A stretch of DNA of 64,000 nucleotides from Candidatus Micrarchaeota archaeon (GCA_964552755.1 CAZKHX010000001.1:84517-148516); one strand, 5' to 3'; shown: positions 1-55,896, counted from the first letter of the stretch. Numbers and translations are program-made. The notes: generated by a model not told the origin, from the letters alone.

Positions 1-13
1 GCTGGCGGGGCAC

Positions 14-3000
14 GTGCAGGCGCGCCATCTCCGCCTAGGGAGCGAAGAGAAGTTCATGGCTGCGTTGCGGAAGGGGGCGCATGCGGCCGCTGAAATGGCT
101 GCACGGCCAAAGCAGCGGCGCACTGGCAAAGAGGGGAAGCCGCAGGCGCCTGGGGCCGCACGCCCGAAGCGGCAGCGCATGGGCGAAGAAGAGAAGCTGC
201 AGAAGCTCAGGGATGCCGGCGTATCGGAAGAGGCAATCCGCAAAATCAGCGGTTCTCAATACTACCTTCGCATATGGTCCCCTGCTAAGATAAGCTGGGC
301 TGAGAATGCGGGGCCGGAGCTCGCATGCTTCATGAAGCCGACCGATTGCCAAAAGCGCGCCGAAGCGGACTTCCTTTCGGCGCTGCAGAAGAGGAAGGAA
401 AAGGCGGAGGCAGCCGCGGAAAGGGCCGCCCGCCAGCGGCAGCTCATGGGCGAAGAAGAGAAGCTGAAGAAGCTGGAGGAGCTTGGCGTAGCTGAGCCCC
501 TTCCCTCAAGCAAATGGTTCCTAAGGCGGGTAACCGCAGAGACGCTGCCATTGCTCGAGGAAGCAAAGAGGCACGGGCTTCTCGGCATGGTGAGCGCCTC
601 CAATCTCCAGCGCTGCAAAACAAAGGAGGAATTCGTTGCTTTCCTCGAGAAGAGGGGCAGGGGCAGGAGGCCCACCTCTGGAGATAAACTGCGGATTCTC
701 CGGAGCTACGGCCTGCCGGAAGAAGAAACAAAACGGCTTGAGTCCTTCATAGGCCGCATTTCCACCAACCGGCTGGGGCGGGTCAAAAAAGCGCACGAGC
801 TGGGCCTGCTGGAATATGTTGCGGTACACCATTTCCAAATCACTTCGGAATACGCATTCATATCCCTGCTGTATCGCCTCAGGAAGAGAAAGACGGGAAT
901 AAAGCCCCCAATGCCATACTCATCCGGGAAAGAGAAGGGGCAGCCGCCGCCCAACTCACCTTCCGATGAAAAAAAGCTCAGGGCGCTTGAGGAGGCCGGC
1001 GCGCCGGCTTCTTTGGTCTCCAAGCTGAACCCCGGGAAGATTTCTGCCAAAAGACTGGAAGTTCTCATGGCTGCGGCAGAAGAAGGGCTCTTGGACTGCG
1101 CAGTGCCGAGCATTATCCATAGCACCAAGCTAACGAATCTGCTTTCGAAGCTCCGCGAGCGCAAGGCCAGCCTGTCAAGATTGAATACAAAGGCGGCCAC
1201 AAAGGCAATGAAGCTTTTGCACATGAAGGATAACCTTGGCTTCACGAAGGAGGAGATGGCCCGCGTTGAGCATCTCGTGCCTTCCATCCCGATGCGCAAG
1301 CTCCCATGGCTGAAAGACGCGGACAGGCTCGGGCTTCTGGAGCATGTGAACTCCTCTACTCTCAAGCACGAGGCCAAGGGGCAATTCATCGCCGCCCTTG
1401 AAGAACGAAGGGACAAAGTGTCATTGCCCCGCAAAAAGCTGGAGGCGCTGCACGGGCTGGGTATGCCCGAAGAAATATTTGAGCGCATTCGCCCCGGTCT
1501 TGGCCAGGTACCCCTCAAAAAAATTCCGTGGCTCAAGGCCGCGATGGAGCACGGCTTGGCGGAATATGCAAGGTTGTTCACTTTTGCCAAGGCCAAAGAC
1601 GAAAAGGAATTTGTTGCGCTCTTGCGCCGCTCAAAAGAATACCATGAGCGCAACAGCGCTGTGAATTCCCTCACGGAGCAGGAGCGCCATGCGTTGGTGA
1701 ATGAGAACATGGGCTTCATAATGCACATCGCAAACCTCGCGCATACGAGGTTCGGCCATTTCATGTCATTCGAGGAATGCCGCGGGGCCGCGGAGGAGGG
1801 CATGGTGAAGGCCTCGCACAAGTTCGACCCGGAGCGCGGGGTGAAATTCGTATCCTATGCCGCCTATTGGATGTGGAACAGCATATACCGGGAAGCAAGA
1901 GTAAAATCTCCCATCCCACTGCCGGCCAACGTATACCCAAACAGGAATGCGCTTGAAGATGCGGTGTATGCGCTGGAAACAGGGGTTGAGGAGACTTCTG
2001 AAATGACCCTTGGGGCGAAACGGCACATCGAATCGGTTTCAGCGGGAAAAAAGACGCTGGAGGACCTGAAAGCGGAAGCAACGGAACTCAACTTCCTCAT
2101 TTCAATGGCGCACGGCGCGCTGTCCCTGGACAAGCAGGTGAACGAAGACGGCAAGGCGGCTTTCGGGGACCTTGTCGGCCGCATCGGAGGCCAGGAAAGG
2201 GCGGTTGAGCTGTCGGAGATGCATGCCGCCATGCAGGGCGCCCTGCATGTCCTTACCTCTCAGCAGCAGGAAGCAATCAGGGAATATTACCTTTCAGGGG
2301 AGAAGCGGACCCTTCAGCAAATCGGGAATGGGATGGGGGTCAGCAGGGAGCGCGTCCGGCAGATCAAGTCTGCCGCGCTCACCCGCCTCGGAAGGGTCCC
2401 GGAAATCAGGGAACTGCTCGGGGAGGGTCGGACTCTTCTGGATTTCTTTATTCCCGGGAAGGTGCCTGTAGAGGAAAAGATTGCGTTCCTGCGGAAAGAG
2501 GGGTATCCGGAGGAGTTAATCAAGCGGCTGGAGCCGCAGATGATGGGCATACAAATGCGCAAATTGAAGGAATACCTGCCGATAGCCCGCGGCCTGGGCC
2601 TGCTCTCCCAGGTAAATATCTCCAGCATCAGGGCAAAGACAAGGGAGGAGTTTGTTTCCAAGATAACGCGCAAGCGGAAGCATGTTTTGCACCCGCTTTC
2701 GGACGTGGTTTCTGTGCCGGCGCACGTCCCTGCCCGCGCGGCTGAGGAACATGTTCCCCAGAAGCCGCGCAGGCGCTCTTTCTTCTATGGCGGAGGGAGG
2801 GTGGAACATGGCAGGGTGGGGAGGAAGCCCACCAGGGATGCCAAAATCGCGCTGCTCAGGGAGTTCGAGGCCCCAGCCCACCTGGCCGAATCCAAATCGC
2901 TGAAACTGGTTGGCCTCGAAAAGCTTCGTGAGCGCCTGCCGGTCGCGCAGAAGCTCGGGGCAATGCAGAAGCTCAGGATATGGCATCTCCAGGCTCGGAA

Positions 3001-4729
3001 TGAGACGGAATTCATCTCTAGGCTTGCCAATGCGAAGGGCAATGCAAGCGTGGAGGTGAAAATTGCATTGCTGGAAAAGCACGGCTGCGGGCATTTGGCC
3101 GCACAGCTTGGCCTGGAGTACATCTCCATGCAGAACCTTGAGCGCTATCCTCCGCTGGTATCCGGTTCCGGGCATTCCAAGCATGTAATGGCCTCCCATC
3201 TCAGGGAAGCGAAATCCGGGGCCGAATTCCTTGAGTTGGTGCACAGGCAGGCAGGGCTGCCCTCCGGCGGGCAGGATGGGGCGCAAGCCGGTCCCACCGG
3301 GAAAGCGAAAACCAAAGGCAGAAGCGAGGGGAAGAGAGGCAGCTTAACCCCGGAAGAGAAAAGGCAGAAGCTTGTGGCGCTCGGCATGCCTGCAGGCTTC
3401 CTGTCGGATTCCACTTTGAAATTTATCTCTGCAAAAAGAATCGGCTGGCTGGAGGAAGCGGCAGCGCAGGGGCTGGCCAGGTATGCAGCAGTCAGTAACC
3501 TGAGGTCAAGGACGGAAGAAGAATTCATTGCCGCCCTCCGGAAAAAACAGGAGAGGGAGCAGTGCAGGGAGGCCAGGGCGATTGAACGGAAGAAGGGGAA
3601 GCCCCTCTCCCCGGAAGAAAAAATACAAAAACTGGTGGGCCTGGGCATGCATGAGGGCATGGCGTATAAGATATGGCGCTACGTCCACCCGAAGAAGATG
3701 GCATGGGTGGAAAAAGCCGCGGATGAGGGCCTGCTTGAGCATGTGAATACCAGTAACATAACTACGGCAAAGTCAGGGAAAGAGCTTCTTGCCGCGCTTA
3801 GGGGGAAGAAGGCAAGGCTCTCGATAATGGCGGCGGCCCGCGAAGAAGCGGAAAAGGTGAAGGCAGAAGAAAAGGCGAGAAGGGCTGAGGCAAGGGCTGC
3901 GGAAAGGGAAGAAGCAAGGAAAGCAAAGAAGGCGGCAAAAGAGGAGGTCCGTGCAGAAGAAAAGGCGAGAAGGGCTGGAGCAAGGGCGGCTGCAAGGAAG
4001 GCAAGGGAGAAGGCAGAAGCGGAAGCAAAAGTGAAAAGGAAAGCAGAACGGGAAGCGAAAAGGAAAGCAAGGGAGAAGGCAGAAGCGGAAGCAAAAGCGA
4101 AAAGGAGAGCGGAAAGGGAAGAAGCAAGGAAAGCAAGAGAGGAAGCGAAAGCAGAGGCAAGGCGGGCCAGGAAGAATCGCCTTACCATAGATGAAAAAGC
4201 CCAAAGGCTGAGGGAATTGGGCGTCCGCAAAAAGACAATCGAAAACCTCACGCCCCACCTGAAGCAAATCTCCACCAGCAGGCTGGAATGGGTGTTGGAA
4301 GCGGACAGGCAGGATTTGGCAGGCCATATCAACAGCGGCATACTCAGCCTGCAGTATCCCACGCAGGAGGATTTCATCGCGGCCCTGCAGAGAAAAAGCG
4401 AAAAAGCCGCCAGGAGGAAGCCCGCCGGAATCTCTGAAATGCTTAAGGGCATGAACTGGGAATCGATGTCGCTCGAAGAGCTCGCGGAGCACGTGCCGGT
4501 AAAGGAGATAATGCTCGAGCACGAGGGGTTCCCGCGCGACGCCCTGGGCAGGAAATTGCTGGACGTTGTTTCCATAGAAGACCTCGTGCTTGCGATGATG
4601 CTCGCGAAGCGCTCAGCCGACCCGGATGCCGCCATAAGGAGGTATGCGTCCATGCAGAAGGGCGACCTCATCAGGCTTTTCTTCCCGTTCATCAGCCCCC
4701 TAAGCGAAGAATCGCGGGACGCTTCCTAG
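14..4729 (+). CDS. Giant sigma-70-family domain protein with >=12 helical repeats (5'-partial; frame is open to the window edge)
   Basis: Sigma region 2 (LVNENMGFIMHIA...FDPERGVKFVSYAAYWMWNSI, ~1676-1900), region 3.2-like SLDKQVNEDG and region 4 HTH (RTLQQIGNGMGVSRERVRQIKSAALTRL, ~2220-2400). Flanked by repeated EEK-x3-L-x2-LG...W-x3-A-x3-GL...EEF-x3-L modules. No stop between position 2 and 14. Confidence 0.85.
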   Translation: MQARHLRLGSEEKFMAALRKGAHAAAEMAARPKQRRTGKEGKPQAPGAARPKRQRMGEEEKLQKLRDAGVSEEAIRKISGSQYYLRIWSPAKISWAENAGPELACFMKPTDCQKRAEADFLSALQKRKEKAEAAAERAARQRQLMGEEEKLKKLEELGVAEPLPSSKWFLRRVTAETLPLLEEAKRHGLLGMVSASNLQRCKTKEEFVAFLEKRGRGRRPTSGDKLRILRSYGLPEEETKRLESFIGRISTNRLGRVKKAHELGLLEYVAVHHFQITSEYAFISLLYRLRKRKTGIKPPMPYSSGKEKGQPPPNSPSDEKKLRALEEAGAPASLVSKLNPGKISAKRLEVLMAAAEEGLLDCAVPSIIHSTKLTNLLSKLRERKASLSRLNTKAATKAMKLLHMKDNLGFTKEEMARVEHLVPSIPMRKLPWLKDADRLGLLEHVNSSTLKHEAKGQFIAALEERRDKVSLPRKKLEALHGLGMPEEIFERIRPGLGQVPLKKIPWLKAAMEHGLAEYARLFTFAKAKDEKEFVALLRRSKEYHERNSAVNSLTEQERHALVNENMGFIMHIANLAHTRFGHFMSFEECRGAAEEGMVKASHKFDPERGVKFVSYAAYWMWNSIYREARVKSPIPLPANVYPNRNALEDAVYALETGVEETSEMTLGAKRHIESVSAGKKTLEDLKAEATELNFLISMAHGALSLDKQVNEDGKAAFGDLVGRIGGQERAVELSEMHAAMQGALHVLTSQQQEAIREYYLSGEKRTLQQIGNGMGVSRERVRQIKSAALTRLGRVPEIRELLGEGRTLLDFFIPGKVPVEEKIAFLRKEGYPEELIKRLEPQMMGIQMRKLKEYLPIARGLGLLSQVNISSIRAKTREEFVSKITRKRKHVLHPLSDVVSVPAHVPARAAEEHVPQKPRRRSFFYGGGRVEHGRVGRKPTRDAKIALLREFEAPAHLAESKSLKLVGLEKLRERLPVAQKLGAMQKLRIWHLQARNETEFISRLANAKGNASVEVKIALLEKHGCGHLAAQLGLEYISMQNLERYPPLVSGSGHSKHVMASHLREAKSGAEFLELVHRQAGLPSGGQDGAQAGPTGKAKTKGRSEGKRGSLTPEEKRQKLVALGMPAGFLSDSTLKFISAKRIGWLEEAAAQGLARYAAVSNLRSRTEEEFIAALRKKQEREQCREARAIERKKGKPLSPEEKIQKLVGLGMHEGMAYKIWRYVHPKKMAWVEKAADEGLLEHVNTSNITTAKSGKELLAALRGKKARLSIMAAAREEAEKVKAEEKARRAEARAAEREEARKAKKAAKEEVRAEEKARRAGARAAARKAREKAEAEAKVKRKAEREAKRKAREKAEAEAKAKRRAEREEARKAREEAKAEARRARKNRLTIDEKAQRLRELGVRKKTIENLTPHLKQISTSRLEWVLEADRQDLAGHINSGILSLQYPTQEDFIAALQRKSEKAARRKPAGISEMLKGMNWESMSLEELAEHVPVKEIMLEHEGFPRDALGRKLLDVVSIEDLVLAMMLAKRSADPDAAIRRYASMQKGDLIRLFFPFISPLSEESRDAS
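3840..4165 (+). repeat. Low-complexity A/E/K/R-rich coding repeat (putative single alpha-helix linker)
   Basis: AEEKARRAEARAAEREEARKAKK... with internal DNA duplications such as gcagaagaaaaggcgagaagggct and gcaagggagaaggcagaagcggaagcaaaag, each present twice. Confidence 0.85.
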
Positions 4730-4753
4730 CCGGAAAATGGCGGCCTGCGAAAC

Positions 4754-4763
4754 CGTTTTAATA
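4754..4763 (+). promoter_or_regulatory. Archaeal TATA box of sigma paralog 2 (leaderless)
   Basis: cgTTTTAATA about 23-30 nt upstream of ATG 4786; same spacing as the paralog 3 promoter. Confidence 0.65.
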
Positions 4764-4785
4764 CGTGTGAATGAAAATCCACATA

Positions 4786-5847
4786 ATGTCTTCTGTAGCC
4801 ATACAGTTGCCTCCCAGCGAGCGGAGGCCGGCACTGCGCAGGCCGCGCGCACCACAGCCAAAGTCAACATGGAGCAGGAAGGCCGGCGCAGGCGACATCC
4901 CGTTCAGGGCGAGGAAGCCGGTACCTGAACTGGGCTTCCCAAGCTCCATAGAGGAGGCGATAAGCCAGAACGGCGACATCATAGGCAACTGGGTGCGCCG
5001 CCTGAGTTCATGGGGGAGAAGGTACGGGTTCAGCTGGCAGGACCTCGAGCACTTCGGCAGGACCGGGCTGGCAAGGGCATACATGCGCTTCGAGCCGGAG
5101 AGGGGCGTGGACTTCAGGGCATATTGCGGGAACTTCATCGGCAGGACGATACAGCGCGAAGTGATGAGGGACGCGAAGGGCATGCTCAGCTTCAACGCGG
5201 TTGAAAGGTATGAGAGCACTGCCGATGCTCTCGACTGCTACGAGAACGGCGGGGACCCGGGCCTGCTCCCGAAGCTCGCAAGAAACAAATACGACCTCCT
5301 CGCGTCCGGGGAAATCACGGCGAAGCAGGTGGATGCATGGCTCAGCAGGGCGGCAGGGCAAATCCACAACGCCGCGCAGCCAAAATCGCTCGATGCGCCC
5401 GTTGCGCGGGGAGTTGATACCCCGCTGGGCGAGAGCTCAAAGCTCCCATGCGGCTCATTCAACACCGAGGGCTATGACATGGAGCGCCTCAGGCAGAGGG
5501 TGGAATTCCACCTGAATTATGTGCTGGTCACCAATTCCAGCTGGAACGAAACCACGAAAGGCAGGGCAAGGAAAATATTCAGCTCGCTGTGGCTCAGCGA
5601 AAAGCCCCTGAACGGTGCGGAGCTTGCGGAAATGTTCTGGCTGACACGCGAGAGGGTGAGGCAGCTCGATGCTCGCGTGATGGCCGAGATGGTGCCCCGC
5701 CTGCTTTCCGACCCGCTTGTTTCCGAATTCGTGAGCGCGGGCCTGGGCATAAGCGAGGATTCCATAGACGGGAAGCGCCGCTTTTTCGCGGGCATGGGGT
5801 GCAAGGAGAAGGCGAAGTCCCACGTGCCGCGCTACGACCGCATTTGA
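4786..5847 (+). CDS. Sigma-70-family protein, paralog 2
   Basis: Region 2 (QDLEHFGRTGLARAYMRFEPERGVDFRAYCGNFIGRTI), SLDAPV region 3.2 and region 4 (AELAEMFWLTRERVRQL). Start placed at MSSVA by analogy with paralog 3. Confidence 0.8.
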   Translation: MSSVAIQLPPSERRPALRRPRAPQPKSTWSRKAGAGDIPFRARKPVPELGFPSSIEEAISQNGDIIGNWVRRLSSWGRRYGFSWQDLEHFGRTGLARAYMRFEPERGVDFRAYCGNFIGRTIQREVMRDAKGMLSFNAVERYESTADALDCYENGGDPGLLPKLARNKYDLLASGEITAKQVDAWLSRAAGQIHNAAQPKSLDAPVARGVDTPLGESSKLPCGSFNTEGYDMERLRQRVEFHLNYVLVTNSSWNETTKGRARKIFSSLWLSEKPLNGAELAEMFWLTRERVRQLDARVMAEMVPRLLSDPLVSEFVSAGLGISEDSIDGKRRFFAGMGCKEKAKSHVPRYDRI

Positions 5848-5861
5848 GCCTCTCCCGGAAG

Positions 5862-5871
5862 CGTTTTAAAA
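5862..5871 (+). promoter_or_regulatory. Archaeal TATA box of sigma paralog 3 (leaderless)
   Basis: cgTTTTAAAA about 23-30 nt upstream of ATG 5894. Confidence 0.65.
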
Positions 5872-5893
5872 TCTGGGAGACAAAATACGCATA

Positions 5894-7126
5894 ATGTCTT
5901 CTGTAGCTACCCAAAAGCGGAACAGCCGAAGGGGGCAAGCCCAGCCTGTGAAATCAACGATGCAGAGGGCGAAGGATGGGAACGAGAGGCGCTGGGACCT
6001 CGGCAACCTTGGCGTCATAACCGCAGCGCAGGCAGTCCAGGCATATGCGCCGCTCGCATCGGGAATCGCATGGAGGAAGTCCAGGATAAAGCAGAACGTG
6101 GGCATCAGCAAGGAGGACCTCGTGCAGGAAGTTCACCTTAGGATGGTCCAGGACATCTTCGACAAGTTCGACCCATCCCGCGGGGTGAAATTCGAGACCT
6201 TCATGAGCAGGCAGATAGAGGGCGCGATAACCAGCGAGATTTCCCGCGCGTTCACCCAGAACGGCTCCGTTTATGCGAACATCTCGCGCGTAAGGGTGGC
6301 GCAGAGCGCGCTGGACGCAAGGCGCGGCATCCAGGGCCGGGAGCTGCTCACAGATTCCGCAAAGAAGATGCTTATAGGGATGCAGAAAGGGGAGCTGAGC
6401 GAGGAGGAGGTCATGCGCCGCATAGAGAAGATGAAGCAGGGCCTCTTCCGCGCGGACCACGTTTTCCTTTCCTCCCCGGAAAGGGCGGATGAAAACGGCA
6501 AGGAGCGGTTATACTCGGATACCCTAGCCGACCGGTCCGTGCAGATGCCGGACGAGCGCAGGGACGTTACCAGGATGAGGATGGCCGTTGACGGCACCAT
6601 GGCTGTGCTAAACGGCCGGGAGCTCGAGGCGGTGAGGAGGCGCTACTTCGGCCTCGGCTGGGGAAGGGAAGGAAAGCAGCCCCCGCTTGCGGAAATAGGC
6701 AGGGCGATGGGCATAAGCAGGGAGCGGGTGAGGCAGGTGCTGGAGGCAGCCCATAAGAAAATGGGCGACCGGCTCTCCCAGAATCTCAAGATACAGGAGT
6801 TCCTCGGGAAGGGAGCTTCCGAGCTTCTGGAAGGGATGAACAGGCCGAGGAGGGAATACTGCAAAAACGGGAAAGGCCGGAAAAGGCATGCCTCCCAGGG
6901 CGTCCAGGAGAAGAAGGAGGCGGTCCGCGCAATGGGCGCCAGCGAAAAGACGGTGCGCTCGGTCCAGTGGAACGAGGTCCCGGGCTGGAAGATACCTTGG
7001 GCGGAAATCGCAATAGAATTGGGGGTGGAGGGCAGGCTGAATGCCGGCATGTTCAAGGCCGCGGAGACAAGGAGGCAGTTCAGGAGCATGTGCAGGAAAC
7101 TCAGGCAAGCCCGCTCCTCTGCGTAA
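5894..7126 (+). CDS. Sigma-70-family protein, paralog 3, with one C-terminal copy of the helical repeat
   Basis: Region 2 (SKEDLVQE...FDPSRGVKFETFMSRQIEGAI) and region 4 (LNGRELEAVRRRY...LAEIGRAMGISRERVRQVLEAAHKKM). C-terminus QEKKEAVRAMG...KIPWAEIAIELG...RRQFRSMCRK matches the repeat of ORF 14-4729. Confidence 0.85.
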   Translation: MSSVATQKRNSRRGQAQPVKSTMQRAKDGNERRWDLGNLGVITAAQAVQAYAPLASGIAWRKSRIKQNVGISKEDLVQEVHLRMVQDIFDKFDPSRGVKFETFMSRQIEGAITSEISRAFTQNGSVYANISRVRVAQSALDARRGIQGRELLTDSAKKMLIGMQKGELSEEEVMRRIEKMKQGLFRADHVFLSSPERADENGKERLYSDTLADRSVQMPDERRDVTRMRMAVDGTMAVLNGRELEAVRRRYFGLGWGREGKQPPLAEIGRAMGISRERVRQVLEAAHKKMGDRLSQNLKIQEFLGKGASELLEGMNRPRREYCKNGKGRKRHASQGVQEKKEAVRAMGASEKTVRSVQWNEVPGWKIPWAEIAIELGVEGRLNAGMFKAAETRRQFRSMCRKLRQARSSA

Positions 7127-8357
7127 TCTCGCCTGCAATGTTGCGCATCATCTCATCGCGCACCTTCTCCACCTTCTTCTCATGCCCCAGCACCCAGCAC
7201 ATTTTCGCATAGGCGGCCTCCGGGGTCCAGTCCGCAAGGTGGCCGAACACCCCCGCATCCTGGAGCATGCGGCCCGCGGTGTATACGTTCAAATCAAGGC
7301 GGCCGGAGATGCACTGCGAGCTCATCGCAACCGGCACCCCGGAATCAACAAGCGCTTTTACTTCGGGGAGGATGCTCTTCGCAAGCTTGTCGTTGAAGGC
7401 GTTGGTGGGCGCGTTGCCCAGCCCGGTGCCCACGAGCACCACCCCGTCGAAGGAAGAGAGCTTTGAAACGAACGAAGGCTGCACCCCCGGATACAAATAA
7501 AACAGGGAAACGTTGCCGCTTACTTTATTGTTGAACTTCAATTTGCCGCCGCGATTGTGGTAGGGAAGCAGGGGCTCCACGAGCTTCTTCCTGTAGTCCA
7601 CGCGGGCAAGCGGAGGAGAATTTATCGAATGGAAGGCGTCCCTGCGCGTGGTGTGCATCTTGCGCACCCGCGTTCCGAGGTGTATCACGTCCATGCCGTC
7701 TCCGGTCCCAGAATGCATGCACACGCCCACGTTCGCCATGGGGCCGTTCTTAGCGGCATAGGCCGCATTTAGGATGTTCAGCCGCGCATCGGTGGATGGC
7801 CGGTCGGAGCTGCGCTGCGCCCCAACAAGGTAAACCGGCGCGGGCAAATCCTGCAGCATGAAGGAAAGCGCCGCGGAAGTGTAATGCATGGTGTCGGTGC
7901 CGTGCAGCACGAGCACGCCCTGCGCGCCTGAGCCGATTTCTTCCTTTATCGCCTCCGCCGCCTTTGCCCAGTGCAGCGGGCTCATGTCCTCGGAAAGTAT
8001 CGCAAACACCTCGCGCGCACGGAAGGATGCAATTTCATGCAGGCCGGGGATGCCCTTCATCAGGTCGGAGGGCTTGGTGGTCGGGAAGACCGCCCCGGTC
8101 TTGTATTCCACTTTGGATGAGACGGTGCCTCCCATCCCTACGATGGAAATCTCGGCCTTGCCCGGAACCTTTTCCTCCTTCTCTTTGGGCTGTGGAACGG
8201 AGCCGAGCTCCTCGACTTTCGCCCCGTCCTTCGCAATGCCTATGTTGTAGCCTGAATCAAGCTTCAGGGCAAGGAAGCCCTTGTCCATGGACGGGAGGAG
8301 TATCCCCTCGTAAACCCTGCCCTTCCTGTCCACGCGGACGCGCCTGAGCTTCTCCAT
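7101..8357 (-). CDS. gatD: Glu-tRNA(Gln) amidotransferase subunit D
   Basis: N-terminal LKLDSGYNIG domain, GGTVSSKVEYKTGAV, HGTDTM and QRSSDRPS motifs. Start trimmed to MEKLRRV, downstream of a TATA element at ~8379-8385. Confidence 0.95.
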   Translation of the reverse strand: MEKLRRVRVDRKGRVYEGILLPSMDKGFLALKLDSGYNIGIAKDGAKVEELGSVPQPKEKEEKVPGKAEISIVGMGGTVSSKVEYKTGAVFPTTKPSDLMKGIPGLHEIASFRAREVFAILSEDMSPLHWAKAAEAIKEEIGSGAQGVLVLHGTDTMHYTSAALSFMLQDLPAPVYLVGAQRSSDRPSTDARLNILNAAYAAKNGPMANVGVCMHSGTGDGMDVIHLGTRVRKMHTTRRDAFHSINSPPLARVDYRKKLVEPLLPYHNRGGKLKFNNKVSGNVSLFYLYPGVQPSFVSKLSSFDGVVLVGTGLGNAPTNAFNDKLAKSILPEVKALVDSGVPVAMSSQCISGRLDLNVYTAGRMLQDAGVFGHLADWTPEAAYAKMCWVLGHEKKVEKVRDEMMRNIAGEITQRSGLA

Positions 8358-8406: not shown

Positions 8407-8703
8407 ATGTATATGAAGGTGCACGAGCATACGCGGGGGAAAATCATTGCCGCGTGCGACAGGGGGCTGGTAGGGAAAGTGCTGCATGAGGGGGATGCAG
8501 TGCTGGACCTGAAGGAGTACGCATCGTTCTACAAGGGCGAGCCGGCGGAAGAAGCTGACCTGCTGAAGGCGATGCGCGGAGCCTCTTCGCTGAACCTTGT
8601 GGGGGAAAAAGCGGTTTCCGTAGCCCTTGAACAGGGGATTCTGGAACAAAACGACGTTAAGTATATAAATGGGGTTCCACATATACAAATTTACAGAATC
8701 TGA
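8407..8703 (+). CDS. DUF424 family protein
   Basis: MYMKVHE...IIAACDRGLVGK...SLNLVGEKAV...VPHIQIY pattern of archaeal DUF424. Confidence 0.8.
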   Translation: MYMKVHEHTRGKIIAACDRGLVGKVLHEGDAVLDLKEYASFYKGEPAEEADLLKAMRGASSLNLVGEKAVSVALEQGILEQNDVKYINGVPHIQIYRI

Positions 8704-8716
8704 GGGAGGGGTACCC

Positions 8717-9127
8717 ATGAAAGAAATATCAGTAATTGCCGAAGACCGGGTTGGGCTATTGGCCGATATCTCCTACATTTTGGGGAAGGCAAGGATAAAC
8801 ATAGACTCTATTGCGGTTTCCTCAGTTGGGGGGAAGGCCGTGCTCTGCTTCATGGTGAAGAATGCGGAGAAGGCGACCAAGACGCTTGAGAGCAACGGCT
8901 TCAAGGTCAGCGAGGCGAACATGGTTTTCCTCAAGATTGAGGACAGGCCGGGGGCGCTTTCGGAAGTCGCAAAGAAGCTCGCGGACAACAAGATAAACGT
9001 GGACAACCTGTACCTTGTGTCCAAGGACGGCAAGAGCTCAATCGTGGGCGTGTCCGTTTCGAGGCCAAGGAAGGCAAAGAAGCTGCTTTCCGAGTTCCTC
9101 ATAGAAAATGTGGACACCCACTACTAG
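8717..9127 (+). CDS. Tandem ACT-domain protein
   Basis: Two ACT motifs: EDRVGLLADIS...INIDSI and EDRPGALSEVA...INVDNL. GGAGG upstream. Confidence 0.85.
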   Translation: MKEISVIAEDRVGLLADISYILGKARINIDSIAVSSVGGKAVLCFMVKNAEKATKTLESNGFKVSEANMVFLKIEDRPGALSEVAKKLADNKINVDNLYLVSKDGKSSIVGVSVSRPRKAKKLLSEFLIENVDTHY

Positions 9128-10113
9128 AGGTCCATTTCCAATTCCTTTTTCTTTTTATCGAGCATCCAGCCTTTTTCCTTTGCAAGCCCTTCAACCGCGG
9201 AAAGCCCGCCTTCCCTGTAAAGCTGCAGCACCTGCTCCACTTCGGCATACTTTTCGTAAATCAGGTCCCCCTTTGCCTTTGCCTCCTTCTCCTCGCGCGC
9301 AAGCTCCACAAGCCGCCCCTCCTGCCGCTTCAGCAGCGCAAGGCGCTTCCCCTCCCCCTCATCTCCCGCCTCTCCCACAGAGGGCGGGCCGAATGCCTCA
9401 TCCAAGGCTTCGGAAAGAGAGCCTTTTGCTTCCCCTTCGCCATAAAGGGAATAGCCGCCTTCAAACACTACTGGCTTTAGGCCCCCAAGCAATTCCCCGT
9501 ATGCCGCCCTGAGGGCAATTATCTCCTTGGGGGAAAGCTCCCCGACCGGCCTTTTCTCTTCAATCCCCGCCAAGGAAAGAATCTTCTTCACATAGTCGAT
9601 GCCGATGTTCAGGGGCACGAGCGCAGCGGCAATCCGCTTGTCGCCTCCCCCGGCAAGCACTTCGTCAAGGGTTTTCTCAGAAGAGGGCGGAAATGCATGC
9701 TCTTTCCCGGGGAAGAGCTCGCGGCCCTTCCAGCTCCTCCGCTCGTAAACAGCGGTTATCTTCCCGCTTTCAACGAGCATGAGGTTCCCGGAGCTGAACA
9801 TCTCCGCGATGAGTTCCTTCCCGCCGAAATCGAATATCACGATGCGGTCCTTGCCCTTCTGCACCAGGGAGGAGAGCTTCCTCCCCTTCAGCTCCTTCCT
9901 TGCTTTCTGCGCAAAGCCGCGCGGCTCCCCGGCTTCCTCAAGGTATTTCGTGAGGTGCAGGCGCTGCCCCAGGACAATGAGCAGGTGGTCCTTGCCGAAC
10001 TTCAGCCTGAAGCGGCCCGGCCCCAATTCATGGAACTTGTCGAGCCGCCGGCCCACCAGCGGCTGGAGCTCCTGCACAATGTACGTGTATTCGAGGTTTG
10101 CCATGCCGCGCAT
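9124..10113 (-). CDS. NFACT-N / Rqc2(RqcH)-like protein, C-terminally short
   Basis: LEYTYIVQELQPLVGRRLDK, DRIVIFDF...LIAEMFSSGNLML and GIDYVKKIL (HhH-like), followed by coiled coil. Ends at ~330 aa. Confidence 0.75.
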   Translation of the reverse strand: MRGMANLEYTYIVQELQPLVGRRLDKFHELGPGRFRLKFGKDHLLIVLGQRLHLTKYLEEAGEPRGFAQKARKELKGRKLSSLVQKGKDRIVIFDFGGKELIAEMFSSGNLMLVESGKITAVYERRSWKGRELFPGKEHAFPPSSEKTLDEVLAGGGDKRIAAALVPLNIGIDYVKKILSLAGIEEKRPVGELSPKEIIALRAAYGELLGGLKPVVFEGGYSLYGEGEAKGSLSEALDEAFGPPSVGEAGDEGEGKRLALLKRQEGRLVELAREEKEAKAKGDLIYEKYAEVEQVLQLYREGGLSAVEGLAKEKGWMLDKKKKELEMDL

Positions 10114-10215
10114 TGGCTTGAATAGGGGCAATTGCGAATAAAAACCCTTTCTAGTGCAGATTAGCGGAAATTATTGTGTATTTATAAGCATTTTTCGCCA
10201 CATATTAATATCGCT

Positions 10216-11850: not shown

Positions 11851-11894
11851 AAACCCTTCCCCGTTTTATAGGTTTTCCCTTAATACCCCAACGC

Positions 11895-16552: not shown

Positions 16553-16813
16553 GGATGGGCTAGGCGGGGGCCAGGGGTCCCCATCCTGCAAATCCCCTTT
16601 AGGCAGGCTGAACGCCCGGGGCGTTGCCTGTTTTTTCGATGCCTTTCGTTGTAAGCGTCGAAGCCTTCCCTTCTAGGTTGGCTAAACCGTGCGAACCGGG
16701 TCAGGCCGGAAGGAGCAGCCCTAAGCGCGTTTTGCCAAGCTTAGGAGCAAGGAGGTGGAGCTGAAAGCGGAAGCTCCTTCGGGAAGACAGATGGCAATCC
16801 GGGAAGCCCATCC
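16553..16813 (+). ncRNA. ffs: Signal recognition particle RNA (7S-type, ~261 nt)
   Basis: Terminal helix GGATGGGCT/AGCCCATCC, Alu-like 5' domain and helix 8 GAACC-GGG-TCAGG-CC-GGAA-GG-AGCAG-CCC-TAAG. TATA TTTTAAA at 16524-16530. Confidence 0.92.
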
Positions 16814-19736: not shown

Positions 19737-19866
19737 GCAGGAGTGGCGGAGTCTGGAAAACGCGCCAGACTCAAGGCAAGGGGCCGATTTTCCGTCGCGA
19801 AACCCGGCCTTTGGTGAGCCATCTGGTGGCCTAGCGCCTACGCAGGTTCAAATCCTGCCTCCTGCA
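19737..19866 (+). tRNA. tRNA-Leu(CAA) with 45-nt intron (19776-19820) at canonical 37/38
   Basis: Acceptor GCAGGAG/CTCCTGC, anticodon stem CCAGA/TCTGG with CAA at 19772-19774, long variable arm and GTTCAAATC T-loop. BHB: CTCA pairs with intron TGAG, with 3-nt bulges. No encoded CCA. Confidence 0.95.
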
Positions 19867-20635: not shown

Positions 20636-23359
20636 ATGGTAGGTTCTGCACTTAAAGAAAAGGAATGGAGCGGCGTCCGCAAACAGCTTCTCTCTACAGG
20701 GCTCTCAGAGCCGAAAGTCGACCTCATCCTCCAGTGGCTCAATGGGGAAGTCCCCTCCCTCAACATCGACATAAAGGAGGCAGGGGCCAAGTGGTGGAAA
20801 ATCGACGGCATCATCCGCCAGGAAATGAAGGCCCGCGGCATGACGAGCAAGGCAGACCTGATGCTTATCGAGGAGAAAAGGATCTACTATAACAAGGGCC
20901 CGAAGAAGGGCAAGGTAAAGGACGTCAGGCTCATTGCAGAATGGCCGTTTCCGGTACAGAGGGCGGGCCTCCTGCCGTATGAGGACCGCGTAAAGGCGGA
21001 AAGCTACAAGGAAGAGATGACGGCCTACAATTTCTCGCCGGAAATACGCTACCTCGTCTCGGACTTCCTGGTAGGCACCTTCTCGTTCTTCGCGATCAGC
21101 GTAAACGACAAGCAGTCCGCCTACATGCTCGAGAACTACCTCCACAAGAAAGGGATACTCACCACCAAGATAGAGGAGGAAAAGACCAAGGAAGGCACGG
21201 AATATGTCATCTCTGCAGTCAAGTACAAGGGCCCGGAGGAAGAGGAATTCATGGGCAGGCCGCCTGCGGAGAAGAGGAAGCTCTTCATGCAGAGGCACAA
21301 GGAAAGCTATGGCGACCTCTATGGTGACGTATTGGAGATGCACAAGGGGAACATGGAAGACGTTGTCGCGGAGCTCGAGGAAAAATCGGAGAACTTCTAC
21401 AAAACGGCCGATTCGGTTGACAAGAAGATGTACGGGGACAAGGTGCCGTTGTTCGGCTCCAAGGTTTTCTACCGCGACCCCAAGACAAAAGACATAGACG
21501 TTTATGCGGAGCAAGTCGGCTGGGCATCCCCCTATGAGATTTTCCTGCATGGCACTTTCGGGGACCACGTGGGCGCGATGTACATGACGTACATGTTCAG
21601 GATGGCCAACATCCCCAAGGGAAGCGGCAAGATGATAGGCTTCGTGGACGACGTAATCTTTGGGAAGGAGGGGGACCTAGCAACCCTCGACCTTTCAAAG
21701 AAGGCCCCTTCATTTGAAGATACCGATGTCGCGGCCATGGCCGCGGTGATGTATACCCTTTACGGCGGCGCAGGGCACGAGGCACAGGCGGCCGGGAAGG
21801 ACTGGTTCGACATGGTGGGGGAGAACGCGCAGATAGCGCGCAAGAAGGGCAAGGGCAAGAAGGACTACCACACAAAGTACGCTTCGGACGCATACAAGTA
21901 TGTGAGCAAATGGTATGACAAGAAGAAGAGGCAGGACTTCATAGACACCCTCCCCCTCGACGCCAAGGCCGGCTTTGAGTACTGGACCGGCGAGATGGGC
22001 GCCTACCTCTGGGCGCACTACGTGCAGAAGCACGGGGAGCCGAAGACAGAAGAGGAGAGCGCGAAGATATTCAATGCGTGCAAGGAGGCCGCGGAGATAA
22101 TAATCCTCGGGGAAATGCAGGCGGAAATCGGCAACCCTGCAAAGTGGTTCACCCAGATTGTCCTGACCCCCGGGACCTTCACTTTCGGGGACAAGAAGGT
22201 GACCTACAAGGAGGAAACCAAGATAGTCGCGGGCCACAACATCCTCGTCGGGAATGTGAAGGGCCATGGTGACGGCGCATATGTGGTGATGCCGACCCCG
22301 GATTCCTATGGCTCCAACCAGGTGGTTGTCATCGGGAAGATAGTGAAGGCGAAGAAGTCCAAGGAGAACCCGACAGGGTACAAGATAAAGCTCTTCAAGG
22401 ACAAGAAAGGCGACATCAAGCCGGTATTGCACACCGTGAGCGGCAAGGATTCGCTCGGCTGGTCCGGGCTGGCGCCCAAATGGACCACGGCCAAGGAGCC
22501 CGGCACTGAAGCAAGGGACTATGGCTCCTACCCCCTGATGCGGTTCTACCAGAAGTCCACGTGGGACATCTACAAGGACGAAGTGAAGGAAGAGCCGGTG
22601 CCGCTGAGCTACAGCCTTGACGCAGAAGTGACCCAGCCGGGCTACTTCTGGCCGGAACGCTACAATGAGGGCCAGCTGGTGCTCAATGACATCAAGCTTG
22701 CGGGCAAGCCCGTGACGCTCGAGTCGTTCCTTGACAATCCGTCCACCAAGGTGGATTTCGTGCTTGCAAGGCAGCCTGCCGAAGGCGTGGACGAATATTA
22801 CCTGCTCGTCACCCCTGAGCTGGAGAAGGCGAACCCCGGGGCGTACGACCTTGAGCCGAAAAAGAACCCCAAGTTCGTGAAGCAGACCGCAAGGCTAGCA
22901 GGCAACAACATATACATGTACAAGGACCTGAAGACCGGCAAATGGGTCGATGCGCAATATGGCTATAAGCACAAGGGTGATGCGAATATAGAAGAATATT
23001 ATGCAGGCACCTACGAAGTCGACCATGAGAAGGGCATCGTGAGGGTGTTCGCGACCAAGGATTATGAGCCGCTGCTCGTTTCCCACCTTAGCGGGGAGGG
23101 AATCAAGAACAGGCCGGACACGAAGCTGGACAAGGTTGATGGCACGATAACCGTCGAGCTCCCGGCCTCGAGCCAGTGCGCGGCAGTGGTGAAGGACGAG
23201 AATGTCATCCTTTCGGTAAAAGTGTACCCGCCTACAATTACCGTGACCAAGGAAATGAAGCCAAAGAAGGTGAAGGTGGGCCAGGTAACGACCACTAAAG
23301 TGCTCAAGGGGAACGGCTTTGTGAACCCTGTCCACAAGTATAAGTTTGAGGAGGATTGA
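20636..23359 (+). CDS. Large Lys-rich hypothetical protein (907 aa)
   Basis: Long ORF with strongly biased codon use; no signal peptide and no recognised motif. Confidence 0.85.
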   Translation: MVGSALKEKEWSGVRKQLLSTGLSEPKVDLILQWLNGEVPSLNIDIKEAGAKWWKIDGIIRQEMKARGMTSKADLMLIEEKRIYYNKGPKKGKVKDVRLIAEWPFPVQRAGLLPYEDRVKAESYKEEMTAYNFSPEIRYLVSDFLVGTFSFFAISVNDKQSAYMLENYLHKKGILTTKIEEEKTKEGTEYVISAVKYKGPEEEEFMGRPPAEKRKLFMQRHKESYGDLYGDVLEMHKGNMEDVVAELEEKSENFYKTADSVDKKMYGDKVPLFGSKVFYRDPKTKDIDVYAEQVGWASPYEIFLHGTFGDHVGAMYMTYMFRMANIPKGSGKMIGFVDDVIFGKEGDLATLDLSKKAPSFEDTDVAAMAAVMYTLYGGAGHEAQAAGKDWFDMVGENAQIARKKGKGKKDYHTKYASDAYKYVSKWYDKKKRQDFIDTLPLDAKAGFEYWTGEMGAYLWAHYVQKHGEPKTEEESAKIFNACKEAAEIIILGEMQAEIGNPAKWFTQIVLTPGTFTFGDKKVTYKEETKIVAGHNILVGNVKGHGDGAYVVMPTPDSYGSNQVVVIGKIVKAKKSKENPTGYKIKLFKDKKGDIKPVLHTVSGKDSLGWSGLAPKWTTAKEPGTEARDYGSYPLMRFYQKSTWDIYKDEVKEEPVPLSYSLDAEVTQPGYFWPERYNEGQLVLNDIKLAGKPVTLESFLDNPSTKVDFVLARQPAEGVDEYYLLVTPELEKANPGAYDLEPKKNPKFVKQTARLAGNNIYMYKDLKTGKWVDAQYGYKHKGDANIEEYYAGTYEVDHEKGIVRVFATKDYEPLLVSHLSGEGIKNRPDTKLDKVDGTITVELPASSQCAAVVKDENVILSVKVYPPTITVTKEMKPKKVKVGQVTTTKVLKGNGFVNPVHKYKFEED

Positions 23360-23367
23360 GGTGATTA

Positions 23368-25121
23368 TGATGGGCGGTGTGCAAAAACAAAAGAAGGAAG
23401 GGGAAGTCGGCTCGCTGAAGGATGCCCAGAAGGTCCTCGACCTGTGGGTCAAGCACTGGAACGTGCTCAGCATGGACGAGTTTGGCAACCTCATGAATGC
23501 GATAAAATTCTTCAATGATGCCTACAAGTCCGGCAAGAAGATGACTGAGCAGCAGGTTGCGGATTCCATGAATGCGATGATGCAGCTCAAGGGCAAGATA
23601 GAAACGCAGATTTACGAGGGCAAGGCAGCCGGGGAGAAGGTCTCGCACCTTGAAGCGGCAGTAGAGGAAATCAACAAGTACACCACTGCAATCGGCCTCA
23701 AGGAAGGGATGTATTCCATAGAAAAAGGCAGCAAGGTCAAGGTCAGCGACCCCTCGCCCGCAGTGAAGTTCCCGATACCTTCCGTCCCCATCATAAGCGA
23801 GCTTGAGGTAGACATCCGCGACGTGGACCTGAACCCCCAGCTCATCGTCAACATGCATGTGCAGGAGGACAGGGACACGCTTGAGGGCCAGGTTGGCGAT
23901 GCCGCAATGGCAGCTGCGGTCGGCGACACCACGATGGCCGCAAATGCGGGCAGGCAGATCCTTCAGATGCTTGCCGATTCCTGCGGCATGAGCTATGAGG
24001 ATTTCGTGAATCTCAATTGGGGCAGCACCGGGCCGCTCACTGCCGGAGAAAAGGCAGTCCAGGTCTGGGGCGGCAGGGACCCGACAATCAATGCGGACGA
24101 CGCAGAAGCAATCAGCGCAGTAATAGACAGGCTTCTCGCAGGGGATGTCCTCGGCGCGATAAACGCGGGCGGGGAGGAAGGCACTCCCATCGGAGATACG
24201 CTCATTGACTACCTTGAAGGCGTCTTCGAGCAGATGAAGGTGCCGATACCCACCGTCGCAGTTGGCCTTGGCCTCAAGCAGCCGTTCGTGGGGAATGAGA
24301 AAGCCATGCTTGCGGTGCAGGCGGAATTCTATTCTTATTTCTGCAATGTATTCAACCCGATACTTACGCAGACCAGCCCGGGCGTCTACACGGTTGACTT
24401 CAGGCCAACCGGGGAAACCGAGACCAAGTTCGGCGGGACCGGGGGAGTGGCGCTCGCGGCCCAGCTGAAGAATGCGCACTACATGGAAATAGAGATAATG
24501 GCGGGCAAGGACGCATTCCTGAACAAGAAGGGCGGCGTGATGAAGGGCAAGGTTACCTTCTACGGCGCAGGCGACGTGAAGATAAAGACGCTCGACCTGA
24601 CCTTCTACTATTCGGCCGCGGTCGCGCAGTCCGTGCTCGTGGCTGAAAAGAAGGGCAAGCCCGTCACCGCGGGCCCGACCGAAGTAACCGGAGACCTCAT
24701 GGTCGGCCTTGCGCACGCAGGCCCCATCGGTTTCTTCCTTGTGGGCAGCGTTGACTGGATGAACTACTATATGTACAACAAGGCGTACGAGGGCAAGAAG
24801 ACCGCGACCGACCAGCTCACGGGCAAGGCCGCCGCGCAGATCAAGTTCCCAATCTCCAAGGAGAAGGGGATAAAGGGCGCGATAGAGCTTGGGGCGCTGT
24901 TCCCCGGCACGATAAAGGGGAAAAAGCTCAAGCCGGGCAAGCCGGGCGCAACCGTGGGGTTCGCCCTTGACACACCTGCCGCAGTATGGCAGGTGGGCGT
25001 GCAGGCAATGCCCCCCACAAAGGTCACGCCATTCCCGATGGAAGGCCAGCCGGCGATGTTCTTCATTACAGTCGGCTACAGCGGGAAGAAGCCAATAATA
25101 CCTGTAGAGCCAAAACCGTAA
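23368..25121 (+). CDS. Hypothetical protein, helical N-half and beta-rich C-half
   Basis: GAGGTGA Shine-Dalgarno before ATG 23368; abuts both neighbours. Confidence 0.85.
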
Positions 25122-25132
25122 AGGATGTGAAT

Positions 25133-31055: not shown

Positions 31056-31122
31056 CCCTGCCTGCCGCCCCCGCCGTTAAAAATGAAAAACTATTTAAAT
31101 GGTTTCAGGGCATATTACCCTC

Positions 31123-33225: not shown

Positions 33226-33909
33226 ATGGAAACCAAGACCATTGCAACTGCCATAATCGTACTGCTGGCGGCAATCGTGGCCGCATACGTGCTTATGCAG
33301 CCCCCCGCGCCGGGCCCGGCCCCGCCGCAGGACAGGGGCGACGAAGTGGAATACATCCAGTATTTCATAGACAACGCCGTTGAGGCAAACGACGTCCACA
33401 TCGTGATGGACCTCAGGGGCTCGGAGGGGAAGGCAAGGGCTAACATAATGCAGTGCGGGATAGACCTTGCCGCAGGCAGCGGCCTCGTCTCAAAGACGCT
33501 GCATGTCTATTCATTTGAGGGTGGCATATGCACCACGCAGGAAGGCGAGATGCCCATTGCGGACTGCATAAACGAGCTGCAGGCCGCACGCACAGCACAG
33601 GGCCACGTGATTTTCTATGCGGAAAAGGGCGACAGCGTAAAAATATACGAGCAGGAGCTCCTCATCGGCGTGAACGAGAGCTACGAGTACAAGGACTGCA
33701 GCGTGAACCTGGTCGTAGTGACCCAAACCCCGGACGAAACGGGAGGGCGCAACGTGACCATGCCGCCCGAGGGCGACCTTCCGTCCAGCCCCGGCCCGGA
33801 AATCCCCGGGAATGAAACAGAAGGCGGACTGCCGGAGGGGGAACTCCCTCTAGGCCCCGGTCCCGAAATACTGCCCGGCAACGAATCAGCGGCAAACGAA
33901 TCCGGCTAG
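33226..33909 (+). CDS. Membrane-anchored protein with 4-Cys domain and Pro/Gly/Glu repeat tail
   Basis: N-terminal TM; domain resembles the C-terminus of the upstream gene; the tail repeats LP-x-x-PGPEI-(L)PGNE twice. Confidence 0.8.
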   Translation: METKTIATAIIVLLAAIVAAYVLMQPPAPGPAPPQDRGDEVEYIQYFIDNAVEANDVHIVMDLRGSEGKARANIMQCGIDLAAGSGLVSKTLHVYSFEGGICTTQEGEMPIADCINELQAARTAQGHVIFYAEKGDSVKIYEQELLIGVNESYEYKDCSVNLVVVTQTPDETGGRNVTMPPEGDLPSSPGPEIPGNETEGGLPEGELPLGPGPEILPGNESAANESG

Positions 33910-48611: not shown

Positions 48612-48629
48612 GCACGCGCTTTCCATCCG

Positions 48630-48655
48630 CAGGTTTTTATGCGTTCAGGGCGCCC
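48630..48655 (-). repeat. 26-bp direct repeat copy 1 (promoter of the lipoprotein gene)
   Basis: caggtttttatgcgttcagggcgccc; 25/26 identical to 49735-49760. Confidence 0.85.
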
Positions 48656-48683
48656 ATCCCGCACTTAGCAGCGCCCATACACT

Positions 48684-49712: not shown

Positions 49713-49734
49713 CTAATTCCTGCATCTACAGTCT

Positions 49735-49760
49735 CAGGTTTTTATGCGTTCGGGGCGCCC
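49735..49760 (-). repeat. 26-bp direct repeat copy 2 (promoter of the acyltransferase gene)
   Basis: caggtttttatgcgttcggggcgccc; the minus strand reads GGGCGCCC...cgcATAAAAA. Confidence 0.85.
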
Positions 49761-49860
49761 CCGCCCCGCCAGCGGCCGGTTCAGACCTAGCTTTATAAAT
49801 CTTACGTTTCAAATTAATCGGCACAGGGGGAGCGCTACCTCTGCGTCGCCGGGTGGTCTA

Positions 49861-50100
49861 TTGAAGAAAACTGCGGAACTAGATATACTTAAACATAATC
49901 TTGTGCCTCCGATGGAAATTCTCCCGGAAAAGGAGAAGGAAGCTCTTTTTAAGAAGCTGAACATAGGGCCGGAAGACCTCCCAAAGATGAACTCTTCCGA
50001 CCCCGAGGCGGAGGCGCTCGGCGCGAAGGCCGGCGACGTAATAAAGATAAAGAGGAGCGACGCTACGGCGACGTATTTTCATTACAGGATAGTGGTGTGA
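49861..50100 (+). CDS. rpo5: RNA polymerase subunit Rpo5 (H)
   Basis: HNLVP, LPKM..SDP and GDVIKIKR motifs; TTG start after GGTGG. Confidence 0.93.
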   Translation: MKKTAELDILKHNLVPPMEILPEKEKEALFKKLNIGPEDLPKMNSSDPEAEALGAKAGDVIKIKRSDATATYFHYRIVV

Positions 50101-51577: not shown

Positions 51578-51581
51578 TCAC

Positions 51582-53411: not shown

Positions 53412-53420
53412 GGTGTTCAT

Positions 53421-55889: not shown

Positions 55890-55896
55890 GGTGGTT

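Follow-up and report, generated by a model that had tools for sequence, protein, structure and literature searches.

Sigma-70 family genes of variable number split the gatE-gatD pair in a Micrarchaeota archaeon

Archaea initiate transcription with TBP, TFB and TFE, and sigma factors are regarded as a bacterial hallmark. What, then, are three consecutive genes of the sigma-70 family doing in an archaeal chromosome? The genes lie on 64,000 nucleotides (nt) of DNA from Candidatus Micrarchaeota archaeon (GCA_964552755.1 CAZKHX010000001.1:84517-148516). This whole stretch is called the window here, and positions are counted from its first letter. Three co-oriented open reading frames (ORFs), all of the sigma-70 family, fill positions 2-7126 of its plus strand, between gatE and gatD. 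Two relatives from one ENA sample, referred to as L004 and L159, carry the syntenic locus and serve for comparison. The sigma genes diverge and change copy number far faster than the genes next to them, and the largest of them encodes a giant fusion protein built from a repeated module.

The sigma-70 identity of the three ORFs can be read from profile scores, structure searches and motifs. The cut-offs are 24 bits for Sigma70_r2 (PF04542), 24.1 bits for Sigma70_r4 (PF04545) and 42.9 bits for TIGR02937. ORF1 (2-4729, +) scores 28.0, 50.6 and 76.6 bits with these models, and ORF3 (5894-7126, +) scores 34.4, 37.0 and 55.0 bits. ORF2 (4786-5847, +) stays under all three cut-offs with 18.5, 18.9 and 21.0 bits. 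It matches RpoH and RpoS models at E-values of 1e-8 to 1e-10 and can be aligned over regions 2, 3.2 and 4 with ORF1, ORF3 and bacterial sigmas. ORF2 is a divergent sigma paralogue. A first-pass annotation of this DNA had described three co-oriented sigma-70 ORFs, and this description holds: hidden Markov model (HMM) searches confirm it for ORF1 and ORF3, while ORF2 is below the cut-offs yet alignable. In a PDB sequence search the core of ORF1 retrieves sigma factors only (SigA, E 7e-17). An AlphaFold model of ORF3 (predicted local distance difference test score, pLDDT, 70) has bacterial sigma factors as all of its top 50 Foldseek PDB matches, with probability 1.00 and E-values to 3.6e-7. The global template modeling (TM) score of the model is low (0.2-0.24) because domain placement differs.

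The region 2 and region 4 motifs quoted in the first-pass annotation, FDPERGVKF, FEPERGVDF, FDPSRGVKF and (S/T)RERVRQ, are all present, as is YAAYW, and the RERVRQ recognition helix is seen in all three window paralogues. The shared middle segment was found as well. It is specific to the family, reads AL...EG...(A/T)K/R...GE.(T/S)EE and stands in place of region 3.0/3.1. Of the region-3.2-like segment that had been described, an SLDAP-type linker is there; a Pfam domain for region 3 is not. The three ORFs have no Pfam match to region 1.2 (PF00140) and none to region 3 (PF04539) that passes its cut-off, and the PF04539 match in ORF3 is both sub-threshold (18.4 bits) and mis-registered. The scores do not reach equivalog level for group 1/2 sigmas, where the best are 58-78 bits against cut-offs of 354-379 bits (78 against 379 bits for RpoS, for example). 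With the FliA/WhiG model TIGR02479 (cut-off 189.6 bits) ORF3 scores 43.1 and ORF1 48.9 bits, both under their own RpoD/RpoS scores. ORF3 had been called FliA-like; its scores of 57.6 bits for RpoD and 56 bits for RpoS against 43 bits for FliA speak otherwise. The model of the defence-associated sigma MzaA (NF041931, cut-off 800 bits) gives 52, 37 and 23 bits, PADLOC gives 31-34 bits, and MZA partner genes were not found nearby.

The gene model of ORF1 had to be corrected. The first-pass annotation had started the array at position 14. ORF1 has no in-frame stop upstream of 14, and its reading frame is open to the 5' end of the window. The gene continues past that edge and begins about 270 nt upstream of it, so that the window holds the C-terminal 1575 codons of a giant sigma-fusion protein. 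Full-length ORF1, seen on the longer contigs L005 and L007, is divergent from gatE and encodes 1661 amino acids (aa). Iterated profile searches find 13 copies of a module of about 66 aa in it, seven before the sigma core and six after it, with the consensus EEKLQKLRELGVPEE...ISAKKLEWLEEAAELGLLEHVNASHL..KTEEEFLAALRK. The first 20 residues of ORF1 in the window match the end of one such module. The N-terminal array (14-1630) contains six full copies and this edge-cut one, with per-copy scores of 52-80 bits in the iterated HMM. The sigma core (1616-2401) comprises region 2 (1730-1903), a 3.2-like SLD linker and region 4 (2240-2389) with SRERVRQ. A C-terminal array of five modules occupies 2471-3802 (2471-2671, 2843-3025, 3059-3232, 3353-3544 and 3614-3802). 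It is followed by a stretch of about 120 aa of Glu, Arg, Lys and Ala (3824-4186; aa 1271-1391), in which these residues make up at least 90% of each 30-aa interval. From its composition this ER/K stretch looks like a single-alpha-helix spacer. The protein ends with the 13th module (4190-4393) and a tail of about 110 aa without known family, the two together spanning 4190-4729.

The module is also found outside ORF1: ORF3 carries a single copy at its C-terminus, a 548-aa protein of L004 has three, and P0123, a 429-aa protein from another assembly, has a partial one. Copies are mutually 19-41% identical, so the array is old. An AlphaFold model made from the 13-copy alignment has a pLDDT of 86 and predicts six short helices. 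The module has no Pfam match even at E-values up to 10 and no PDB fold match (E above 7). A profile search of a 5.8-billion protein set returned zero matches, and ORF1 itself was likewise not recovered from that set, so this negative carries no information. Neither the module nor the 1661-aa architecture matches a known family or fold, and both are new as protein features.

The other two paralogues are smaller. The 353-aa ORF2 most likely starts at the ATG at 4786 (MSSVA...), which is called on all other contigs, rather than at 4771. It has region 2 at about 4993-5169, a KSLDAPV linker and region 4 at about 5563-5682 with TRERVRQ. Its Pro/Arg-rich N-terminal tail (QLPPSERRPALRRPRAPQPKSTWSRKAGAGDIPFRARKP; aa 1-65, 4786-4980) is among the parts best conserved between lineages (83-97% identity), which suggests a functional basic tail. 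The 410-aa ORF3 has region 2 at 6035-6247, region 4 at 6599-6760 and its module at 6905-7099. All three proteins are very basic, with isoelectric points (pI) of 9.9 (ORF1), 9.6 (ORF2) and 10.5 (ORF3), and the modules and linkers are basic too. No signal peptide and no hydrophobic or membrane segment was found in the three proteins, whose highest Kyte-Doolittle mean over 19 residues is at most 1.43.

Do these genes belong to the archaeon? The window is an archaeal chromosome, with genes for split RpoB''/B' and RpoA'/A'', GatD, CDC48, archaeal RqcH, aRF1, a beta-CASP nuclease and DUF63. The standard archaeal rpo operon that had been noted in it (split rpoB''/B' and rpoA'/A'') is confirmed at 50111-56916 by profile matches, with RpoB' at 51582-53411 and RpoA' at 53421-55889. 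In a scan with GatD over one genome per GTDB species, the closest relatives are Candidatus Micrarchaeota at 67, 61 and 60% identity, which makes the host a DPANN archaeon to which no species in the GTDB set is close. Each sigma gene carries a CGTTTTAA(T/A) box 29-30 nt upstream of its ATG. For ORF1 this is CCGTTTTAAT, about 29 nt before the ATG, which lies outside the window and is seen in L005. The gatE/ORF1 intergenic region is 80 bp long and contains two back-to-back TATA boxes. The TATA boxes reported earlier for the second and third genes were found as cCGTTTTAATAC at 4757-4764 (+), 29 nt before the ATG at 4786, and as gCGTTTTAAAAT at 5864-5871 (+), 30 nt before the ATG at 5894. The ORF3 box has a homologous promoter in L159. 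Housekeeping genes in the window have TTTTAWAW boxes about 30-45 nt before their starts, for instance at 11864, 29987(-), 38321, 44583 and 61941. The sigma genes thus appear to be driven by archaeal promoters and to give leaderless or near-leaderless mRNA, as far as box sequence and spacing tell.

The assemblies and the substitution pattern agree with residency. At least 20 contigs, drawn from several samples in JGI, ENA and Logan, encode ORF2 and ORF3 with identical protein sequences and the same neighbouring genes. The joins gatE/ORF1, ORF1/ORF2, ORF2/ORF3 and ORF3/gatD recur across many independent assemblies. The last 26 nt of ORF3 overlap the 3' end of the convergent gatD (7101-7126), an overlap that was noted earlier and is real. 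The GC content of the cluster is 0.58, equal to that of its flanks, and that of the rest of the window is 0.54-0.61. Between the window lineage and the sister lineage L004, the ratio of nonsynonymous to synonymous divergence (dN/dS) is 0.16 for ORF2 at a dS of 0.49, and 0.09 for gatD at a dS of 0.54. ORF2 is a functional gene under purifying selection. The locus is provably resident because it splits gatD from gatE, uses native promoters and is under purifying selection. The view of the first-pass annotation that these are resident archaeal genes is also borne out by the independent assemblies, the kept gatD overlap and synteny in three lineages.

The history of the locus can be followed in the relatives. 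The order in the window lineage is gatE (-), then ORF1, ORF2 and ORF3 (+), then gatD (-), with gatE just outside the window to the left of ORF1. The right border of the insertion is gatD (7101-8357, -; NF003217, 463 bits), which encodes subunit D of the archaeal Glu-tRNA(Gln) amidotransferase. In most of 80 other archaeal loci fetched with GatD, which include Micrarchaeota, Aenigmarchaeota, Methanobacteriales and others, gatE directly follows gatD on the same strand. A sigma or module match was found within 10 kb to either side in none of these 80 loci, and no further sigma or module copies were found elsewhere in the 64-kb window. L004, whose GatD is 92% identical to that of the window lineage, has between gatE and gatD the 548-aa protein, consisting of three modules and a sigma core with a changed region 4.2, together with an orthologue of ORF2; it has no ORF3. 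L159 (GatD 87% and GatE about 84-87% identical) has a 166-aa ORF and one 412-aa sigma protein, P0121. P0121 starts with MTSVATKK, overlaps gatD by the same 26 nt and ends in QARSSV, where ORF3 ends in QARSSA. ORF3 is therefore the positional descendant of an ancestral insert, and ORF1 and ORF2 are later additions or differential survivors.

The speed of change at this locus is striking when set beside its neighbours. P0121 and ORF3 are 30-35% identical with a dN of 0.69, against a dN of 0.08 for gatD, whose products are 87% identical. ORF2, which has the orthologues P0271 and P0272, is a mosaic: its N-terminal half is 97-99% identical to the orthologue and its C-terminal half 59-80%. Other genes have entered the area in L159: close to L11 and gatE this lineage has insertions of a TnpB/OrfB_IS605 gene and of an NTase/HEPN pair (4093-7264 of L159), which the window lineage lacks. 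The surroundings of gatE are a hot spot for inserted genes. Upstream of the single sigma gene of L159, between gatE and the 166-aa ORF, there is also a short unannotated ORF (9270-9435 of L159; VDTDRVSLILDLYWKRNFALRRIADCAGVSVMTAWRIVNSY...) with the look of a helix-turn-helix; it may be what is left of a further sigma region 4, or else a small regulatory protein. On the other side, the block DUF424 - ACT-domain protein - RqcH/NFACT_N adjoining gatD (8407-9127 (+), 9124-10131 (-)) keeps its order in the window, L004 and L159.

How did the three genes arise? The first-pass annotation had suggested local duplication, and this is supported at least in part. ORF2 and ORF3 share their promoter and their first 18 nt including the start, CATAATGTCTTCTGTAGC (MSSVA), all paralogues share the middle segment, and the proteins cluster in a neighbour-joining tree of 154 sigma cores. 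A single clade of nine in that tree contains the seven archaeal sequences and pairs ORF3 with P0121. The clade may be a real grouping, and long-branch attraction may also account for it. P0263/P0342, which grouped with the archaeal sequences in the tree, was rejected as a member: it is a tandem double extracytoplasmic function (ECF)-like protein without module or middle segment, and its grouping was put down to long-branch attraction. P0123 (GCA_975955935.1) has a sigma core and the partial module in another context, next to ParE, DUF7557 and an epimerase. When 1.84 billion representatives were searched exhaustively with ORF3 by phmmer, only ORF3 itself came out below 1e-30, followed by P0121 at 1e-29 and generic sigmas at about 1e-12. 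A metagenome scan with ORF3 and P0121 gave only an unrelated bacterial locus, plsY-gpsA-sigma-dnaN.

Recent transfer from an identifiable donor was considered and rejected, as no donor was found among the 1.84 billion representatives and the nearest neighbours are a mixture of plastid, FliA-like and unnamed sequences. A viral origin was pursued through IMG/VR and rejected as well; only generic phage sigmas of at most 32% identity were found there, none with the module. PHROGs returned only the generic sigma family and PADLOC only the weak MzaA matches. The ancestral sigma gene is evidently of bacterial or mobile-element origin and was inserted between gatE and gatD. In the scenario that we propose, a single ancestral gene would have entered between gatE and gatD, with ORF3 as its positional descendant, and would have been duplicated in tandem together with its promoter. 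It would also have gained the new basic helical module of about 66 aa, which expanded to 13 copies in ORF1. Ordinary archaeal TATA promoters would drive transcription of the genes into leaderless mRNAs, and purifying selection keeps the genes.

What the proteins do has to be approached through the residues that they keep and lose. Region 4.2 has R-E-R-x-R-Q in all three window paralogues, invariant with respect to bacterial sigmas. ORF1 keeps the region 2.3 aromatics F..Y..YW and has lost the Q-E-G-N of region 2.2. ORF3 keeps D-L-x-Q-E in region 2.2 and has lost the tryptophan pair, and ORF2 has little left of the key residues of either region. We take region 2.2 to bind the polymerase core and assign the role of region 2.3 in the same way, from the roles of the corresponding residues in Escherichia coli. 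ORF1 and ORF2 have a clear 3.2-like linker, (K/L)SLD(A/K)(P/Q)V..G.D..(L/F)G.

There is about an even chance, in our estimate, that the products are domesticated sigma-derived DNA-binding regulators of the archaeon's own genes, with ORF1 as a multivalent scaffold. We lean towards DNA binding because of the pI of 9.6-10.5, the basic modules and linkers, the lack of a membrane segment and the invariant R-E-R-x-R-Q. As very basic cytoplasmic proteins, they would most likely regulate transcription in the archaeon itself by binding specific DNA sequences. The sigma-4 helix-turn-helix with its intact -35 recognition helix (S/T)RERVRQ would bind DNA, and sigma-2 would help. In ORF1, the arrays of modules together with the ER/K helix would form a multivalent scaffold that binds nucleic acids or proteins. 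Contact with the archaeal RNA polymerase (RNAP) may also occur, either at the clamp coiled-coil or in the cleft through the 3.2-like linker. Several observations weigh against the proteins being such regulators. A search of the window gave no binding site or regulon: promoters of the sigma-70 type (TTGACA-N17-TATAAT-like) are not enriched in it, with 9 found against 6.3 +/- 2.7 expected, nor is TTGACA (20 against 21 expected). The 3.2 linker works in bacteria only inside RNAP, and it is difficult to see why a protein that only bound DNA on its own would keep the 3.2-like 'SLDAP..G.D..LG' linker that ORF1 and ORF2 retain. P0121 has TKQAAHQ in place of the recognition helix, which means that DNA specificity is not kept from one lineage to another. 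The fast divergence and the change in copy number fit a conflict-type role equally well.

The sigma genes might in that case be conflict cargo, that is, a remnant or an active part of a mobile element, a virus or a defence system, such as a decoy or regulator directed against DPANN viruses. A conserved operon is interrupted, copy number, domains and sequence are hypervariable at GatD identities of 87-92%, and ORF2 is a mosaic. TnpB and HEPN/NTase genes adjoin gatE in L159, rpoS-like genes occur in DPANN viruses and a prophage (PMC12647753), and there are the weak matches to the defence-associated MzaA. However, an integrase, capsid, terminase or known defence partner was not found in the cluster or its flanks, the base composition is native, and the MzaA scores are far under the 800-bit cut-off. 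The sigmas in IMG/VR, moreover, are generic, at most 32% identical and without the module. On this balance we consider a role as conflict cargo unlikely.

A more radical possibility is that the proteins are true initiation factors on archaeal RNAP. Their docking sites would be the clamp coiled-coil of RpoA' and the flap of RpoB, with the linker placed in the cleft, and they would compete with TFB or replace it at a subset of promoters. In favour, ORF1 and ORF2 retain the 3.2-like linker motif, ORF3 the core-binding D-L-x-Q-E of region 2.2 and ORF1 the F..Y..YW of region 2.3, regions 2 and 4 occur together in every member of the family, and archaeal RNAP genes are in the same window. However, no single paralogue has both core-binding and melting residues, and -35/-10-like promoters are not in excess. 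Orthologues diverge down to about 30% identity although their RNAP partner would be nearly constant. The proteins are also basic, unlike most bacterial primary sigmas. Both docking on archaeal RNAP as an initiation factor and competition with TFB are, in our judgment, rather improbable. Quite improbable, too, is a form of the idea in which the sigma-derived proteins engage archaeal RNAP (sigma-2 with the RpoA' clamp, the 3.2 linker with the cleft) and redirect or block initiation, with ORF1 as a tether. If it were true, the organism would have a working hybrid of a bacterial-type initiation factor and an archaeal-type polymerase, and the 13-module giant paralogue would tether polymerase or chromatin.

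The first-pass annotation had also offered delivery to a bacterial partner, in which the proteins would be exported as effectors and reprogram the partner's RNA polymerase. The bacterial ancestry of the fold speaks for this and nothing else does: no signal peptide or hydrophobic segment was found in the proteins, secretion genes were not found nearby, core-binding residues are only partly retained, and the known hosts of Micrarchaeota are archaea. We regard export as very improbable. An assembly chimera or bacterial contamination was rejected as next to impossible, since the same four joins recur in many independent assemblies, the promoters are archaeal, the diverged relative L159 has the syntenic locus, 26-nt overlap included, and nothing was found in favour.

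Other features of the window are of interest in their own right. The SRP (signal recognition particle) RNA at 16555-16811 (+) has Bacteria_large_SRP as its best Rfam model (91.5 bits), the archaeal SRP model evidently scoring lower, if it matches. A 130-nt Rfam tRNA match at 19737-19866 (+; 47.9 bits) has no ARAGORN call; an archaeal tRNA with an intron is the most likely explanation. Large ORFs of 907, 591, 684, 708 and 227 aa at 20636-27040 (+) and 31099-33909 (+) have zero Pfam/NCBIfam matches; orphan proteins of this kind are common in DPANN genomes. The GC content drops to 0.50 at 48001-50000, against 0.54-0.61 elsewhere. Here lie an acyltransferase-3 gene (48684-49712, -) and an ORF of 509 aa that matches GH42 faintly, and the stretch may be a horizontally acquired surface-glycan region.

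How does the locus compare with known systems? Sigma-70 genes in DPANN archaea, especially Woesearchaeota, were reported as fam00359, with mis-binning excluded, anti-sigma factors not found and the function left open (Castelle et al., 2021, Front Microbiol, PMC8204110). A 2025 Nat Commun study reported rpoS-like genes of divergent sequence from DPANN viruses and a single prophage (PMC12647753). The general phenomenon is therefore not new, and the claim of the first-pass annotation that the system is undescribed has to be withdrawn. Like fam00359, the genes described here are bacterial-type sigma-70 genes on bona fide DPANN contigs with normal archaeal machinery. Compared by description, the report on fam00359 stresses Woesearchaeota without detail on architecture or locus, whereas here the host is a member of the Micrarchaeota and a hypervariable cluster of one to three genes splits gatD-gatE, with a module in up to 13 copies. 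The rpoS-like genes are likewise divergent sigma genes tied to DPANN archaea; compared by description, they are viral, whereas viral genes were not found flanking the cluster here. Among models and structures, bacterial RpoD/SigA and RpoS give the highest scores. Regions 2.1-2.4, the 3.2 linker and regions 4.1-4.2 align with them, and the -35 recognition helix RERxRQ is identical to that of bacterial group 1/2 sigmas. Identity to that group is about 25-31%, however, and the proteins here are basic, have the middle segment in place of region 3.0/3.1 and share the window with archaeal RNAP only. MzaA, of the MZA anti-phage system, resembles them in having a sigma core inside a larger multi-domain protein and gives weak matches. 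Its scores are far under 800 bits and MZA partner genes are lacking, so the proteins of the window are not MZA members. TFB/TFIIB is the archaeal initiation factor and the functional analogue of sigma. The window proteins may share its niche, promoter recognition with a linker into the RNAP cleft; no sequence or fold relationship to it was detected, as all matches are bacterial sigma factors.

To our knowledge, earlier work noted sigma-like genes in DPANN genomes without ever characterising them. New in this work are the Micrarchaeota host, the history of a gatD-gatE locus with one to three genes in close relatives, the extreme divergence of a syntenic orthologue, and the evidence that the genes have native promoters and are under purifying selection. 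The locus is a clean test case, in which natural variants with one, two or three genes exist in close relatives and in which small expressible proteins (353 and 410 aa) are encoded in the same window as the organism's own RNAP genes. The locus could reveal whether the sigma fold is able to function with an archaeal/eukaryotic-type polymerase. Alternatively, it could show how the sigma fold becomes repurposed as an ordinary regulator.

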